DNA of 62,399 bases, counting the filler, from Candidatus Zhuqueibacterota bacterium (GTDB taxonomy: Bacteria; BS750m-G25), in the NCBI GenBank assembly GCA_016783505.1. It is 3 parts of 3 records of this genome, joined end to end, with 100 filler letters (N's around TTAATTAATTAA, not from the genome) between each part and the next. Parts side by side here need not be neighbours in the genome. Positions count along the whole stretch, not along the records: positions 28,658 to 56,733 come from JADHWK010000033.1; 2 more parts are not named here. One strand, written 5' to 3'. The position numbers were made by a program, and so were the translations under genes. Numbering within the stretch: the first letter of the stretch is position 1; the number at the start of each line of letters is the position of its first letter. This document shows, one piece after another, positions 38,861-49,045 of this stretch. The notes below the pieces were generated by a model. It saw only the letters and a list, made by a program, of their open reading frames with translations, made no database searches and had not been told where the DNA came from.

Positions 38861-38922
38861 AACCGTTAAAACGGTTATGAGCCTTTTTTTATTTGTCTTA
38901 AGCCCCCGACTCAAGTCGGGGG
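38861..38922. repeat. Solo REP-like doublet matching the ends of the tnpA element
   Basis: AACCGTTAAAACGGTT plus AGCCCCCGACTCAAGTCGGGGG; compare 48983-49045. Confidence 0.65.
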
Positions 38923-38973
38923 TTAACTTGGTTTTTCCAGTGGGATTATTATTTCTTTTTGTAGAGGAGAATC

Positions 38974-39963
38974 ATGAATAAGGACATTCAGGTTATCAAT
39001 GAGACGATTAAAGAACAGAGTGCCTTTGTGGACAAATTGGTTTCCGAGGTGGGCAAGGTCATCGTGGGTCAAAAATATATGGTGGAAAGACTTCTGATCG
39101 GGCTTCTGTCCAACGGACACATTCTTCTGGAAGGGGTGCCCGGGCTGGCCAAAACCATGGCGGTCAAAACCCTATCGGCGGCCATCAAGACCAAATTTCA
39201 AAGGCTGCAATTTACCCCGGACCTGCTGCCCGCCGACTTGATCGGAACGTTGGTTTATAACCAGCATGACGGAAAATTTACGGTCAAGAAGGGACCCATC
39301 TTTGCCAACCTGATCCTGGCCGATGAGATCAACCGCTCCCCGGCCAAGGTGCAGTCGGCCCTCCTGGAGGCCATGCAGGAGAGGCAGGTAACGATTGGTG
39401 AGAATACCTTTAAGCTCGACGAGCCCTTTCTGGTCTTAGCAACCCAGAACCCCATCGAGCAGGAGGGGACCTATCCCCTCCCGGAGGCCCAGATAGACCG
39501 CTTCATGCTGAAACTGAAAATTACCTATCCCAACCAGGGCGAGGAGCTGGAGATTATGCGTCGAATGGCGCGGATGGACGGGATAAAAGTGAACGCCGTC
39601 GTTTCCCCAAAGGATATCCTCAAGGCCCGGAAGGCGGTGGATAGCATCTATTTGGATGAAAAGATCGAAAAGTATATTCTGGATATCGTCTTTGCCACCC
39701 GAAATCCGGAGGATTATGGGCTGGAAGATCTGAAGAGCCTGATTGCTTATGGTGCCTCACCCCGGGCCTCTATTTATCTGGTGATAACATCCAAGGCGCA
39801 CGCTTTCTTAAAGAAACGGGGGTATGTGATCCCAGAAGACATCCGGGCCATTGGGATGGACATCCTCCGCCATCGAATCATCGTCACCTATGAGGCGGAG
39901 GCCGAGGAGGTGACTTCGGAAGACATTGTTCAGAAAATATTCGATACGATTGAGGTGCCTTAG
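38974..39963 (+). CDS. moxR: MoxR family AAA+ ATPase
   Basis: Motifs EGVPGLAKT, QFTPDLLPAD, DEINR and ATQNPIEQEGTYPLPEAQ. Confidence 0.95.
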   Translation: MNKDIQVINETIKEQSAFVDKLVSEVGKVIVGQKYMVERLLIGLLSNGHILLEGVPGLAKTMAVKTLSAAIKTKFQRLQFTPDLLPADLIGTLVYNQHDGKFTVKKGPIFANLILADEINRSPAKVQSALLEAMQERQVTIGENTFKLDEPFLVLATQNPIEQEGTYPLPEAQIDRFMLKLKITYPNQGEELEIMRRMARMDGIKVNAVVSPKDILKARKAVDSIYLDEKIEKYILDIVFATRNPEDYGLEDLKSLIAYGASPRASIYLVITSKAHAFLKKRGYVIPEDIRAIGMDILRHRIIVTYEAEAEEVTSEDIVQKIFDTIEVP

Positions 39964-40019
39964 TCCGCTGTCAGCGATCCGCTGTCGGCAGTCCGCTGTC
40001 AGCTATCCGTTTTCAGATG
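39964..40019. repeat. Left arm: eight tandem heptamers (TCCGCTG/TCAGCTA type)
   Basis: TCCGCTG TCAGCGA TCCGCTG TCGGCAG TCCGCTG TCAGCTA TCCGTTT TCAGATG, starting at the first base after the moxR stop. Confidence 0.85.
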
Positions 40020-40085
40020 TAATCATTTAACTTTTTGGGGAAGAACCCGTAGGTTATAAAAAACCTATCCAAGAAAGGATAAGCT

Positions 40086-40436
40086 ATGAGAGACTATCGT
40101 AAGTTGAAGATTTGGAATGAGTCCATGGATTATGTTGTAGCCGTCTATAAATTCTCCAAGATTTTACCCAAAAGTGAGGAATACAATCTGATTTCACAGA
40201 TAAAAAGGGCGGCAACATCCATTCCTTTGAACATTTCAGAAGGTGCAGGGTGTGGAACAAACAAGGAATTTCAACAGTTTTTATGGTATGCCTATCGTTC
40301 CACAAATGAAGTATTGACATGCCTGGAATTGTCATTACGATTAAATTTCTGTCAGCGCAAACAGGTTGAAGCCTTGAGTGATTGGGGTGACAAAATCTGT
40401 GGCATGATTTATTCTTTTGTCAAAAAATTAGATTGA
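40086..40436 (+). CDS. Four-helix bundle protein (23S rRNA IVP/Avd-like family)
   Basis: YRKLKIW...LPKSEEYNLISQIKRAATSIPLNISEG...FL..AYRS..E. Confidence 0.9.
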   Translation: MRDYRKLKIWNESMDYVVAVYKFSKILPKSEEYNLISQIKRAATSIPLNISEGAGCGTNKEFQQFLWYAYRSTNEVLTCLELSLRLNFCQRKQVEALSDWGDKICGMIYSFVKKLD

Positions 40437-40478
40437 CGTAAAGTTTTTAGAGGAAATCCCTTGTTGTGAAAGGTATGA

Positions 40479-40541
40479 TTGCTGACTGCGAATGACGGAT
40501 ATCTGATTGCGGATAGCGGATAACGGATTGCGGGTGGCGGG
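40479..40541. repeat. Right arm: nine tandem heptamers, reverse complement of the left-arm consensus
   Basis: TTGCTGA CTGCGAA TGACGGA TATCTGA TTGCGGA TAGCGGA TAACGGA TTGCGGG TGGCGGG, ending 6 nt before the DUF58 ATG. Confidence 0.85.
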
Positions 40542-40547
40542 AATATC

Positions 40548-41426
40548 ATGATCCCGAAGGAAATCTTAAAGAAAGTCCGATTGGTCGAGATAAAGACACG
40601 GGGGTTAGTAAACGAGGTCTTTTCCGGGGAATACCATTCGGTGTTCAAGGGGAGGGGGATCGAATTTGCAGAGGTGAGGGAATATCAGGTCGGGGACGAC
40701 ATCCGCACCATTGATTGGAACGTTACCGCCCGGACGGGACATCCCCATATAAAGATCTTTGATGAGGAAAGGGAGCTGGTGGTTATGTTCCTGGTGGACC
40801 TCTCCGGTTCGGGGGAGTTTGGAACCCACCGCCAGTTTAAAAGGGAGATCGGCGCTGAGGTCTGCGCCCTGCTCGCCTTTTCAGCCGCCAAAAACAACGA
40901 CAAGGTGGGTCTGATCGCCTTTAGCGATCGCATCGAAAAGTTCGTCCCCCCCAAGAAGGGACGGGGCCACGTCTTCCGGATCATCAGGGAACTCTTGTAT
41001 TTCACCCCAGAAAGCCGACGAACCCATATCGGCCAGGCACTAGAATACCTGAATCGGGTGATCAGGAAAAGATGTATTGTCTTTTTGGTCTCCGATTTCT
41101 GGGATGAGGGGTACGAAAGACCCCTGCAGATTCTGGCCAGAAAGCACGACCTTATCGCCATTACCCTCTATGACCCCCGGGAGGCGGAACTGCCCCGGGC
41201 CGGCTTTGTGGAGCTGAAAGATGCCGAGAGCGACGAGGTCTTCGTCGTTGATACCAGCAATGAGCGATTAAGACAGCGATACCGGGAGGAATTTATTAGA
41301 AAAAAACTGGAACGGGAAAGGTTGTTTAAGTCATTGAAAGTGGATTTAATTACCTTACGCACCGATCAATCATACGTTCAGCCAATTGTTCAGTTTTTTA
41401 AGATGAGGGAACGGCGCTTCCGATGA
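40548..41426 (+). CDS. DUF58 domain protein (MoxR-associated)
   Basis: GIEFAEVREYQVGDDIRTIDWNVTAR, DLSGS and VSDF. Confidence 0.93.
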   Translation: MIPKEILKKVRLVEIKTRGLVNEVFSGEYHSVFKGRGIEFAEVREYQVGDDIRTIDWNVTARTGHPHIKIFDEERELVVMFLVDLSGSGEFGTHRQFKREIGAEVCALLAFSAAKNNDKVGLIAFSDRIEKFVPPKKGRGHVFRIIRELLYFTPESRRTHIGQALEYLNRVIRKRCIVFLVSDFWDEGYERPLQILARKHDLIAITLYDPREAELPRAGFVELKDAESDEVFVVDTSNERLRQRYREEFIRKKLERERLFKSLKVDLITLRTDQSYVQPIVQFFKMRERRFR

Positions 41427-41805: not shown

Positions 41806-42777
41806 ATGGGGATCAGGAATATCCTTTTGACAGGGTTGTTATTGTGGGTATCGCTGTCATTTGCCGATGATGTTCGGATAAAGGCCGAGCTAGAACCGGA
41901 TACCGCGTTGGTGGGGGACTGGATTAGTTTCTCCCTTTTCATCGAACACGACCAAGGGATAAAGGTTGACCTGCCCCAGCTTCAGGGGCGGGTAGGGGAT
42001 CTGGAGGTGATTAAGCCGGGGGAGTGGAAATCTAAAAAGTCAAAAGGGAGGATCATTGACCAAATGGCGACTACCTGTGCGGTATATGATACGGGCCATT
42101 TTGTCATTCCGGAAATACCTATCTTCTACCAAAAGGTCGGGGATACCACCCGGTACCAGATTAACAGTCAACCCCTTGGGGTTTTTATTGCCAGTGTGCT
42201 GGACTCCTCCGTCACCGATATTCTGGACATTAAGGGGCCGGTGGCCTTTCCCCGACCCTTGCGGGAGAAGCTGTTCTGGGCCATGATTTTTATGATCCCC
42301 CTGGCTCTGGGAGCGTTGGCTTACATCTATGTTAAAAGAAAGAAAGGGGGACCGAAAAAAATCCTGGCGGCGTCCCCCCCTTTAGTTCCCCCCCATGAGT
42401 GGGCTTATCAGGAATTGGAGAAATTAAAAGGGTCTTCCCTTCTCCTGCAGGGAAAGTTCAAAGCCTATTATTCCAGGGCTTCCGAAATCGTCTGCACCTA
42501 TCTTGAAAGGCGTTATCCCATTCGGGCAGTGGAGATGACGTCAACCGAGCTTATTGAATGGTTTTCACAATCCAAATTGTCCGACGGTATTTTAGAGATG
42601 GTGAGGAGCTTTCTGGAAAAGTGCGATCTGGTGAAATTTGCCAAGCATCGGCCCCTATCCCAGGAAAACGAAGAGGTTCTCCTTCAGGCCTACCAGATTG
42701 TGGATAGAACCAAACTCGGGGTTGAAAAGTGCTGGGGAAATGAAACTCCCAAAAGAAAAAAACAATCTGAGCTTTAG
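41806..42777 (+). CDS. Bat-operon membrane protein (BatD-like/DUF4381-like)
   Basis: Signal peptide, Ig-like domain, DILDIKGP, TM helix, EMTSTE and DLVKFAK; position within the operon. Confidence 0.8.
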   Translation: MGIRNILLTGLLLWVSLSFADDVRIKAELEPDTALVGDWISFSLFIEHDQGIKVDLPQLQGRVGDLEVIKPGEWKSKKSKGRIIDQMATTCAVYDTGHFVIPEIPIFYQKVGDTTRYQINSQPLGVFIASVLDSSVTDILDIKGPVAFPRPLREKLFWAMIFMIPLALGALAYIYVKRKKGGPKKILAASPPLVPPHEWAYQELEKLKGSSLLLQGKFKAYYSRASEIVCTYLERRYPIRAVEMTSTELIEWFSQSKLSDGILEMVRSFLEKCDLVKFAKHRPLSQENEEVLLQAYQIVDRTKLGVEKCWGNETPKRKKQSEL

Positions 42778-42894
42778 AGGAGAGAAGCACAGATAGTAAA
42801 AAATATTCCGATAGTCCAACATTGCTCATATCAAGACATATTAACTAAATAATTAATAGTAAATAACTTTTAATAATTTTTGAGGTATCAGAAA

Positions 42895-43998
42895 ATGGAA
42901 AATGTGGTGTATCTGTTGGGTGCCGGATTTTCTGCTCCTTTAGGGTTGCCCGTTATGGATAATTTCCTAGAAAAATCAAAAGATATGTATTTTGAAACAC
43001 CTGATAAATTTAAACATTTCTTAAAGGTTTTTGATACGATAAAAGAAATGTCTATTAGTAAGAATTATTTTTCGACAGATTTGTTTAATATTGAAGAAAT
43101 ATTATCAATTCTTGAAATGAAAACTAGTCTTGGGGAAAATGGTTCAAGTCGCTTTTTTATTAAATATATCATTGATGTTATTAATCATTTTACTCCATCG
43201 ATTGTACCACATAAAAATCCTTTAATTGGGAATTGGAATGAGCATATTTTTGGGGATAAACCAATAGCAAACTACTATGGATATTTTGTATCCTCTTTAT
43301 TAAATGCTCAAACTACTCGGAGAATAGTAGAAGATAATTATGGTAACAAATCCCCCATTTATAAGTTATCAAAAGATAGCAATCACCAAGCAAAATATTC
43401 TGTTATTACTTTAAATTATGATTTAGTTATTGAAAATTATTGCAATTTTTTAAATCAAAATTTAGAATTTTGCAATGACATCAAATTTATAAAACCATAC
43501 AATAATTTTAATGTCGAATCTTCTAAATTCCCAGTTATTGCAAAATTACATGGTAGTATTGATACAGGGAAAATTATCCCCCCTACTTGGAACAAATTAT
43601 TAAATAAGCGCGAGATAAAGGATGCTTGGAAAGCTGCACATAAGCTTTTAATTAAAGCAAACCATATTAGAATCATTGGTTATTCTCTTCCAACCACAGA
43701 TTCTTATGTAAGATATCTTTTTAAATCTGCCATTATCTATTCACTTCATTTAAAAAATATTGACGTGATTTGTTTGGATCACAATGGTGAAATAAAAAAA
43801 CGATATGATGAATTCATCCAATTTAAAAATTATCGTTTTATTCCTGAAGACACCCTTAATTATCTAAAACAGAATTTTGAGCTAAACGAATCGTTTGAAA
43901 GACCCGACTCAAAAACGATGAAAGGATCTTTTAACAGATTGGAACAAGCTCATAATAGTTTTATGACCAGTTATATTTTATTACATCAATCTAATTAA
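42895..43998 (+). CDS. SIR2-like domain protein (putative anti-phage NADase)
   Basis: Motifs VYLLGAGFS, ITLNYD, KLHGS, IIPPTWNK and IIGYS. AT-rich. Confidence 0.8.
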   Translation: MENVVYLLGAGFSAPLGLPVMDNFLEKSKDMYFETPDKFKHFLKVFDTIKEMSISKNYFSTDLFNIEEILSILEMKTSLGENGSSRFFIKYIIDVINHFTPSIVPHKNPLIGNWNEHIFGDKPIANYYGYFVSSLLNAQTTRRIVEDNYGNKSPIYKLSKDSNHQAKYSVITLNYDLVIENYCNFLNQNLEFCNDIKFIKPYNNFNVESSKFPVIAKLHGSIDTGKIIPPTWNKLLNKREIKDAWKAAHKLLIKANHIRIIGYSLPTTDSYVRYLFKSAIIYSLHLKNIDVICLDHNGEIKKRYDEFIQFKNYRFIPEDTLNYLKQNFELNESFERPDSKTMKGSFNRLEQAHNSFMTSYILLHQSN

Positions 43999-48470: not shown

Positions 48471-49045
48471 AGCCCACGAATTTATTCGTGGGTATTAAAA
48501 GCATATTAAAACATTTAACCGTTTTAACGGTTTAATGTGGGAGGGTTTTTTGATGTCCCATTCTTTAACCAAATTGTGGGTTCATGCCATCTGGGGCACG
48601 AAGGATCGAATACCATTGCTTAAAGACCCATTTAGATCCAAGATCATACATCATATTCAAGACAAGTTAGAGGAACTTGATTGTGGTGTTCGTATAATTA
48701 ACGGGACGGCGGATCATTTTCATGCACTATTTCTATTATGTAATGATAAATCCCTTGCTGAAGTGATGAAAATGATTAAAGGCGAATCTTCACATTGGAT
48801 CAATCAGCAAGACATTATCAGTCGTAAATTTGCTTGGCAGGTAGGTTATGGTGGTTTTTCAGTAAGCGAATCTATGGTAAAGCAAGTTGAGGATTATATT
48901 CGTAAGCAAGAAGAGCATCATCGGAAGATGACATTTCAAGAAGAATATGATCGTTTTCTTAAACAATATGGGTTATCAGAAAAACCGATGAATCGGTTAA
49001 ATGAATTCTTTTGAGCTATTTTTACCCACGATTAAAATCGTGGGT
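48471..49045. mobile_element. IS200/IS605-type (RAYT-like) element with mirrored hairpin doublets
   Basis: Left hairpins at 48471-48493 and 48517-48532; right hairpins at 48983-48998 and 49024-49045. Confidence 0.75.
48553..49014 (+). CDS. tnpA: Y1 HUH transposase TnpA
   Basis: HAIWGTKDR, DHFH (HUH), FAWQVGYGGFSVS and YIRKQEEHH. Confidence 0.9.
   Translation: MSHSLTKLWVHAIWGTKDRIPLLKDPFRSKIIHHIQDKLEELDCGVRIINGTADHFHALFLLCNDKSLAEVMKMIKGESSHWINQQDIISRKFAWQVGYGGFSVSESMVKQVEDYIRKQEEHHRKMTFQEEYDRFLKQYGLSEKPMNRLNEFF

Follow-up and report, generated by a model that had tools for sequence, protein, structure and literature searches.

The window analyzed here, a 62,399-nt stretch of DNA joined from contigs of a Candidatus Zhuqueibacterota bacterium, carries on its plus strand a moxR gene encoding an AAA_3 ATPase (38974-39963; Pfam AAA_3, 6e-66) and, downstream, a DUF58/vWA gene (40548-41426; Pfam DUF58, 6e-83), the ancestral overlap partner of moxR. 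The two are separated by an inserted cassette of 588 nt, all features of which are given on the same strand and which is placed at 39960-40547 because filled and empty alleles of the junction define its borders (see below); 39959-40546 fits equally well, owing to a 1-nt C ambiguity. The last sense codon of moxR is CCT (39958-39960), and comparison of the filled with the empty allele assigns the following TAG (39961-39963), the present end of moxR, to the cassette. Immediately behind this stop codon lies a left arm of 8 heptamers (39964-40019; 4 x 14 nt, TCCGCTGTCAGCNA), identified by sequence inspection, TRF, a repeat search, and folding. Its heptamers read TCCGCTG, TCAGCGA, TCCGCTG, TCGGCAG, TCCGCTG, TCAGCTA, TCCGTTT, and TCAGATG, so that the arm represents a 14-nt unit of two alternating heptamers (TRF: period 14, 3.3 copies, 81% matches). 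A 5′ spacer (40020-40085) with a mini-hairpin of 6 bp (40050-40067) and, at 40076-40079, a Shine-Dalgarno-like AGGA leads to a 116-aa four-helix-bundle gene (40086-40436), recognized by profile matches as a member of PF05635/TIGR02436, and a 3′ spacer (40437-40478) extends from the stop of this gene to the right arm. The latter (40479-40541; sequence, TRF, and folding) consists of 9 heptamers of the NNNCGGA type, is reverse-complementary to the left arm, and in its 3′ part reads TTGCGGA, TAGCGGA, TAACGGA, TTGCGGG, and TGGCGGG (TRF: period 7, 21 rows). The last six bases of the insert, AATATC (40542-40547), stand directly 5′ of the DUF58 ATG. The layout given in a preliminary description of this DNA, with eight heptamers starting at the first base after the moxR TAG and nine complementary ones ending 6 nt 5′ of the DUF58 ATG, was seen at exactly these positions.

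The same description had placed a 116-aa four-helix-bundle gene and no transposase between the arrays, which was borne out by profile scores and the domain search: analysis of the ORFs of the insert against Pfam revealed no transposase domain, and the insert contains no recombinase. The sole other ORF of at least 50 aa lying wholly within the insert is antisense (40084-40335), and a minus-strand ORF of 79 aa (40409-40648) overlaps the right end of the insert only and extends into DUF58. No sigma-70-like promoter match was found between the left arm and the four-helix-bundle ATG (39964-40085), which fits expression by read-through. The region 39800-40700 had no Rfam match at E up to 1, and in PADLOC the four-helix-bundle protein, MoxR, and DUF58 were all without a match.

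The 116-aa protein scores 110 bits against PF05635 (cut-off 33.8) and 107.3 bits against TIGR02436 (cut-off 24), and its nearest solved structure is XCC0516 (2gsc; phmmer to 2gsc_A, 1.7e-15). Of 121 genomes sampled, 49 contained PF05635/TIGR02436, one of them with as many as 15 matches, and Bacteroides thetaiotaomicron, a harmless carrier that can be cultivated, was positive as a control; to our knowledge, this very large family, for which structures have been solved, has no function assigned. The cassette protein lacks any known catalytic motif. Its residues 41-52 fit RxxxSxxxNxxE (R41-AAT-S45-IPL-N49-IS-E52), thereby keeping 4 of the 5 named residues of GxxRxxxSxxxNxxE, which is given as a conserved motif of the PF05635-type family in PMC3936711; the leading G is replaced by Q. 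Among metagenome contigs, one encodes a 100%-identical protein (contig L069) and represents the same moxR-DUF58 locus. The next 10 metagenomic relatives, at 40-59% identity, reside in other contexts, with neither moxR nor DUF58 within 2.5 kb of any of them, and 5 of the 10 are surrounded by significant arms as defined in the family survey below.

The borders of the cassette follow from a comparison of 38974-41426 with the assembled contigs of four public metagenome runs. In contigs from two separate studies (X5 and X7), 39956 is followed by TC and then directly by 40547. The 559-nt X7 contig covers 39696-39956 (5 differences in 261 nt) and 40547-40842 (16 in 296), with TC at the joint, and a 180-nt X5 contig covers 39832-39956 with 0 differences in 125 nt and continues for 53 nt past the joint; a further X5 contig of 685 nt runs from 40547 to 41231 with 1 difference, and depth in X5 over 40040-40449 is zero. 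The filled form is carried by contigs of the other two runs, X2 and X9, and by metagenome contig L069, which is 99.45% identical to the window over 1636 nt, all 9 differences falling within DUF58. The empty allele reads GAG GTT CCA TGA, its TGA overlapping the DUF58 ATG (ATGA). The insert starts with TTAG, which puts an in-frame moxR stop right behind the last codon, and because the insert supplies this TAG, MoxR still ends in EVP in the filled as in the empty allele; its C-terminus (IEVP) agrees with that of relatives, which also end in EVP. Target duplication at the insert amounts to at most 1 nt. Both arrays lie inside the insert, and therefore the arms came with the gene and the gene did not enter an older hairpin. 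Since moxR and DUF58 overlap in sister strains without the insert, the cassette has been recently mobile. Copying of the array unit from the target was considered and rejected for this locus, where the unit and the empty site share only GATCC, judged to be a chance match.

The phylum is represented in our collection by this genome alone, and all relatives compared are therefore distant. As an outgroup sample, we took the best MoxR match in each of 29 other genomes (52-75% identity). DUF58 is located downstream of moxR in 24 of these 29 loci, six loci without a nearby DUF58 having been checked by reading ORFs, and the four-helix-bundle gene occurs at the moxR junction in none of the 29 (tblastn). 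The DUF58 alignment begins within 40 nt of where moxR ends in 13 of the 23 outgroup junctions listed, and the two closest loci show a TAATG overlap and a 6-nt spacer, respectively. The search for an empty moxR-DUF58 junction in relatives, a check proposed along with the preliminary description, was thus positive, and the same insert is not conserved across distant relatives; its suggestion of a host-neutral element is supported, the empty junction in both near-identical strains and the 29 distant relatives marking the segment as a discrete insert distinct from an ordinary spacer. Given the outgroups, insertion is the parsimonious polarity; the alleles alone would fit seamless excision equally well. 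In either direction, the seamless filled/empty pair implies a precise mechanism.

The two arms are complementary beyond what chance would produce. An inverted-repeat search paired 39965-40010 with 40495-40540 (46 nt, 72% complementary) and returned four shifted registers besides. Folded on their own, the arms form a hairpin of -71 kcal/mol, as compared to -52.3 ± 3.8 kcal/mol for 200 shuffles of the right arm, none of which was as low; within the insert, this fold joins the arms by 52 base pairs, including 11 G.U, and the stem base is at 39964:40541. When the whole 611-nt RNA was folded, the arms were paired in both the MFE and the centroid structures (-182 kcal/mol, z -3.4; none of 20 shuffles reached this energy). 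The sense RNA of the cassette folds 12 kcal/mol more stably than its antisense RNA (-59.3 versus -47.4). The arms are predicted to close a stem of ~50 bp, the base of which adjoins the moxR stop on one side and lies 6 nt short of the DUF58 start on the other. Stable pairing between the arms, which the preliminary description proposed to check by folding the stretch, is present in the predicted structure and exceeds that of shuffled controls.

To place the cassette within its family, we surveyed 103 PF05635 members from 52 genomes or metagenome contigs. The 106 loci picked comprised 30 best-per-genome loci, 60 further loci (full-length, without internal stop, and spread over genomes), 10 metagenome loci, and 6 of the 8 matches in the genome under study, its partial, disrupted matches L005 and L008 being excluded; 3 loci with flanks that were too short were dropped. 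For each locus, the 260 nt upstream were aligned to the reverse complement of the 260 nt downstream, and flanks scoring above 100 of 100 shuffles were considered significant. Significant inverted flanks accompany 66 of the 103 PF05635 genes, compared to 2 of 201 controls (pseudo-genes displaced by 1 kb at the same loci), and 37 family members have no significant arms; among best-per-genome loci, the fraction is 23 of 29 (21 of 30 in an earlier run of the same test). The best arm period is 7 in 51 of the 66 cases, 8 in 11, and another in 4, with a median arm of 40 nt and a median cassette length across the survey of 503 nt (range, 420-792). In 54 of 64 cases, the nearest upstream ORF (at least 90 aa) runs in the same direction as the four-helix-bundle gene (p 2e-8; 32 of 37 when one per genome is counted), as compared to just 37 of 64 for the downstream ORF. 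The left arm begins -25 to +12 nt from the co-oriented upstream stop in 38 of 54 cases (median, 3.5 nt). Measured from the end of the right arm, the median distance is 25 nt to a following co-oriented start and 2 nt to a convergent stop. On the sense strand, 49 of 66 cassettes have a purine-rich left arm (p 2e-6), the left arm of this window being an exception (39% purine). Both family-level expectations raised for this locus, enrichment of inverted 7-mer arrays around homologues and abutment of the arrays on codons, were confirmed by these figures. The stop-to-start span is typical of the PF05635 family rather than peculiar to this window, the four-helix-bundle gene is appended to the 3′ end of a host gene, and the usual packaging combines a co-oriented upstream gene, a left arm starting from its stop, and an arm period of 7 or, less often, 8 or 9.

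We also considered whether the arms, by virtue of a period indivisible by 3, stop all three reading frames that enter the cassette and rejected this idea, with 1.74 frames closed as compared to 1.67 in composition-preserving shuffles (p 0.57). Stop triplets are more frequent when the arms are read from outside in (0.072 versus 0.053 per nt; 40 versus 18 cassettes; p 0.016), and the arms of this window contain none in that direction.

These results leave next to no probability for the view that there is no unit at all and that a small gene came by chance to lie between two independent, slippage-born arrays. The richness of the genome in gene-less 7-9-mer arrays (see below) would favor such a coincidence; against it stand the complementarity of the arms, well beyond chance, the excess of inverted flanks in the survey over the controls, and the joint absence of arms and gene from the empty allele, by which it is refuted as far as the contigs show.

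The best explanation of the whole, to which we assign a probability of roughly 0.68, is that 39960-40547 is a mobile cassette of the rRNA intervening sequence (IVS) type that entered the stop/start overlap of moxR and DUF58 (ATGA, 4 nt). The cassette would be transcribed by read-through from the host gene, and in the transcript the arms would zip into an imperfect stem of ~50 bp that loops out the four-helix-bundle gene and brings the end of moxR, with the ancestral GAGG ribosome-binding site, beside the DUF58 start. Hairpins can reunite a split ribosome-binding site, and RNase III sites placed between cistrons can have a stabilising effect on the products, as in examples from phages T4 and T7. 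By analogy with rRNA IVSs cut in vitro, the stem is also a likely RNase III substrate, which, together with the looping out, would explain why the insertion is tolerated inside an operon. Judging from its sequence, the filled allele has no good Shine-Dalgarno site directly before the DUF58 ATG, and the insert may thus carry a cost. The arrays are probably the target of the four-helix-bundle protein, which would act on them in trans through binding or through promoting their spread or persistence; a role in trans is suggested because the protein is the only cargo and because 7-8-mer arrays are common only in genomes with such genes. The term "intervening element" used in the preliminary description does not denote splicing, and nothing points to re-ligation; rRNA IVSs are likewise reported not to be re-ligated (PMC4990558).

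The reading of the arms as RNA rests on the gene-orientation rule of the survey, on the present locus, on the presence of an RNase III gene in the genome, and on the precedent of Coxiella burnetii, in which, according to PMC4990558, the IVS has a 28-bp terminal stem, is cut within that stem by RNase III in vitro, and contains tandem heptamers (GACAGAT) upstream of the ORF in strain-variable number. Family-wide sense-versus-antisense tests of folding energy and of G.U versus A.C pairs yielded no clear RNA signature. Among mismatch pairs pooled over the family arms, G.U outnumbers A.C (161 versus 118, p 0.012), an excess that is also seen by cassette (32 versus 17) and that is not significant by genome (19 versus 11); it could stem from a transcription-linked C-to-T bias. 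The sense stem is the more stable one in 37 cassettes and the antisense stem in 24 (Wilcoxon p 0.10), with 17 versus 17 when one per genome is counted.

The source assembly (2.5 Mb, 60%-complete) provides further material on both arrays and gene. It contains 8 PF05635 matches, and most of the copies that are intact have inverted arrays on either side, with a unit that changes from locus to locus and arm periods of 7, 8 (AGCAGAGG), or 9 (AAAAGGCTT); other copies are decayed, internally deleted, or broken by REP hairpins. Several very divergent PF05635 copies per genome is a pattern encountered in the family. Counted with TRF at 3 or more copies, arrays of periods 7, 8, and 9 number 122, 113, and 37, respectively, as compared to 20 of period 6 and 6 each of periods 10 and 11, and many of the arrays are short-loop hairpins. 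One hairpin family without a gene, present in at least 14 copies, consists of AATTGTT x4, a conserved 18-nt loop, CAATCAG x4, and outer inverted flanks, and its heptamer is common to an intact cassette on contig C50; C33:20234-20471 and C59:5609-5757 are internally deleted cassettes of this C50 type. Single-linkage clustering of units (up to 1 mismatch, all rotations and strands) collapses 223 arrays together, as it does random units. The genome also has three IS200/RAYT-like Y1 transposase genes, one in the window (48568-48909) and one each on C89 and C80, and no RVT_1 reverse transcriptase match was found in the 60%-complete genome.

Several of these observations bear on the rather unlikely alternative that the arms act mainly as DNA, being cut and pasted scarlessly as a hairpin or cruciform by some recombinase, with the RNA stem as a by-product. 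The enzyme could be one of the host, or the four-helix-bundle protein with a partner, by comparison with REP/RAYT and IS200/IS605 systems, and this possibility is compatible with the main explanation. It draws on the seamlessness of the insertion, with a duplication of at most 1 nt, on the lack of a family-wide sense-over-antisense advantage of the stems, on the three Y1 transposase genes, and on the proliferation of the hairpin family with at least 14 gene-less copies. The Y1 genes, however, are flanked by REP hairpins of their own, which are of the CCCGA..TCGGG type and not heptamer arrays; a pure DNA palindrome would need neither upstream co-orientation (54/64) nor a purine-rich 5′ arm (49/66); and the 11 G.U pairs of this cassette would be C.A mismatches on the other strand.

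To find out how arrays are distributed beyond the cassettes, we sampled 100 kb, taken away from PF05635 matches, from each of 12 genomes with and 12 without PF05635, representing 24 different families and selected for having contigs of known length; tblastn with family proteins detected no four-helix-bundle gene in the sampled DNA. Arrays of 7- and 8-mers with at least 3.5 copies number 105 in genomes with PF05635 versus 8 in those without (Mann-Whitney p 0.0085), and period-7 arrays alone 64 versus 2, as compared to 23 versus 15 for periods 5, 6, 10, 11, and 12. The count of 7- and 8-mer arrays correlates with the number of PF05635 matches (Spearman rho 0.65, p 0.0006, with kinship uncontrolled), and 5 of the 12 PF05635-positive genomes are nearly array-free. 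An inverted partner within 300 nt is present for 31 of 117 sampled 7-8-mer arrays, and in one genome (G025) gene-less array hairpins occupy successive stop-to-start junctions of one operon. The association of arrays with PF05635 is compatible alike with debris of past cassettes and with dependence on the protein.

The operon of G025 and the 13-fold higher frequency of arrays in genomes with the gene could also be read in favor of a host regulatory module that is not selfish, in which the protein binds array RNA at operon junctions and tunes processing or translational coupling, and the position of the gene inside its own candidate binding site would make autoregulation possible. Such a module would hardly be expected to be present or absent among near-identical strains, to exist in the genome as decayed, internally deleted, or REP-disrupted copies, to occur in several very divergent copies per genome, or to have its 10 closest relatives in unrelated contexts, and we consider this reading improbable. 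Extending the mobile-cassette explanation, we put forward, as a tentative generalization with less than even odds, that PF05635 proteins are trans partners of bacteria-wide hairpins of 7-8-nt arrays, the gene-bearing cassette being the autonomous form and the gene-less array hairpins and lone arrays non-autonomous or decayed; rRNA IVSs would then be cassettes residing in rRNA helices, and movement would be seamless, free of duplication, and involve no known transposase. If true, this trans-partner reading would account for the surplus of heptanucleotide repeats that has long been noted in prokaryotic genomes.

Comparison with known systems sets the cassette apart from the main classes of small mobile elements. 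MITEs and REP/REPIN-RAYT elements are small, intergenic, and hairpin-forming, their gene-less copies proliferate, and the REP type has no target duplication. The cassette is likewise small, intergenic, and hairpin-forming, with proliferated gene-less copies, but it contains no transposase of a known kind and the unit of its end arrays varies by locus. It possesses neither the transposase of an IS nor the combination of inverted repeats and target-site duplication of a MITE, and the earlier placement outside the standard IS/MITE categories holds for an insert that lacks both transposase and target duplication. A Y1 HUH transposase adjoining cognate hairpins, as in IS200/IS605 or REP-RAYT systems, is absent from the locus, the Y1 genes of the genome lying elsewhere. 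The protein is related in fold and family to Avd of diversity-generating retroelements (DGRs), PF05635 being reported to resemble Avd, with 2GSC aligning with 4DWL (PMC10053308). Unlike in a DGR, the neighbors are moxR and DUF58, no reverse transcriptase adjoins the Avd-like gene, and there is no template/variable repeat layout.

Genome-wide heptamer repeats have been described as GGGAATC in Xanthomonas and GGGGAYT in Nostoc (PMC4692102) and as TAACTGA in Beggiatoaceae and cyanobacteria (PMC4679880), and Xanthomonas is reported to have 70-75 convergent (inverted) heptamer pairs (PMC4692102). As in the present genome, these are intergenic 7-nt arrays, and theirs vary in length among close relatives (PMC4692102, PMC4679880). 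Their excess in bacteria has been noted since 2007 with no cause given, and the accessible parts of the two papers name no protein partner and make no mention of 23S, S23, or four-helix proteins (PMC4679880, PMC4692102). The arrays described here differ in bracketing a PF05635 gene and in a genomic abundance that tracks the PF05635 family.

The closest counterpart is the ORF-bearing 23S rRNA IVS, as known from Leptospira and from helix 45 of Coxiella burnetii, in which a PF05635-family protein is encoded in the loop, the element measures 400-600 nt, a long stem closed by terminal inverted repeats surrounds the ORF, and tandem heptamers of strain-variable number lie beside it (PMC4990558). According to the same source, the sporadic distribution of rRNA IVSs suggests horizontal spread, the ORF has no assigned function, and RNase III cutting has been demonstrated for the rRNA elements only and in vitro only (PMC4990558). 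In the predicted fold, the cassette shares with them complementary termini forming a stable stem that encloses an S23p-type ORF. It is not situated inside a 23S or 16S rRNA helix, as its moxR and DUF58 neighbors and the lack of an Rfam match indicate, but separates two protein-coding genes within an operon; each of its arms is a complete array of 8-9 heptamers, and it provides the host gene with a stop codon. A full-text search, with subscription journals outside its reach, found no description of such a cassette outside rRNA. We know of no account of the origin of rRNA IVSs put forward since their description in 1990-93, and the locus ties these elements together with the PF05635 family and the heptamer-repeat excess. 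Such cassettes would also account for "odd" small genes in operons, including the 18 genes of the PF05635 family reported within cas loci (PMC3936711). Filled and empty alleles in near-identical strains offer a clean natural experiment on movement, operon insulation, and array binding. The cassette belongs to a barely described and widespread relative of an already known kind, the ORF-bearing rRNA IVS; new here are the filled and empty alleles at strain level, which give exact borders, and the association between PF05635 and 7-8-mer arrays.

The cassettes, in which inverted tandem arrays, mostly of 7-mers, enclose a four-helix-bundle (PF05635) gene, show a polarity of their arms: on the sense strand of that gene, the 5' arm is purine-rich in 49 of the 66 surveyed cassettes (median 59%), the window cassette being an exception to this trend with 39% purine. 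The cargo of such arms may not be limited to four-helix-bundle genes, because an RNase H gene of 142 aa (RVT_3, 1e-17; RNase_H, 1e-11) at L260:391-819, a locus on contig C71 of the source genome (G000), likewise lies between inverted arrays of 7-8-mers. A layout resembling a cassette array was found at L261 (G000:C1:35300-38000), where a run of small genes comprises a weak MazE-like match and an unknown gene, a PF05635 gene, and then another unknown gene and a weak ParE-like match, with AGAAACT-type arrays and a module of about 60 nt (including GCGCAGCGGAAACCCGTAAGGGAAA), present three times, between them.

Heptamer arrays also occur in G000 as a gene-less nested hairpin element of at least 14 copies (among them C5:23169, C5:35856, C5:52223, C5:76399, C36:25405, C85:37623, C3:1714, C20:3425, C23:29484, and C36:18404). 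Between its outer inverted flanks, a conserved loop (AAAACCTAGGCTCCAGCA) is preceded by 3-6 heptamers of the form AATTGNT and followed by 3-6 of the form NCAATCA, the heptamer number differing from copy to copy. Tiny CCCGA-loop-TCGGG hairpins of about 18-30 nt are nested within, and disrupt, two four-helix-bundle ORFs of this genome (L007, C85:8072-8239; L005, C38:5863-6027), and they also sit within heptamer arrays that belong to the MITE-like family of hairpins (C75:2032, C13:5008, and C84:80415); one terminator-like hairpin of this type lies upstream of moxR in the window (38901-38924).

In other lineages, the moxR-DUF58 junction carries different inserts, namely heptamer arrays without a gene (AGAAGTG x4 and GGTTGAG x4; L026, G056:C79) and a near-perfect palindrome of 190 nt (L014, G047:C70). 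Directly 3' of DUF58 in the window (41806-43998) lie an ORF of 323 aa that matches no Pfam family and a gene for a 372-aa SIR2_2 protein matching PADLOC Aga_SIR2 (5e-13), possibly a defence gene pair within the moxR operon neighbourhood.

Three IS200/RAYT-like Y1 transposase genes (PF01797, 75-90 bits) are present in G000, at window 48568-48909 (C32:19911-20252), C89:1320-1664, and C80:2255-2593. Each is flanked on either side by its own set of small REP hairpins (for example, CCCACGA..TCGTGGG and GATCCCGAAACTTCGGGAT), and AACCGTTAAAACGGTT-type palindromes also flank these genes; together, the Y1 genes and their flanking hairpins and palindromes look like a REP/RAYT system.
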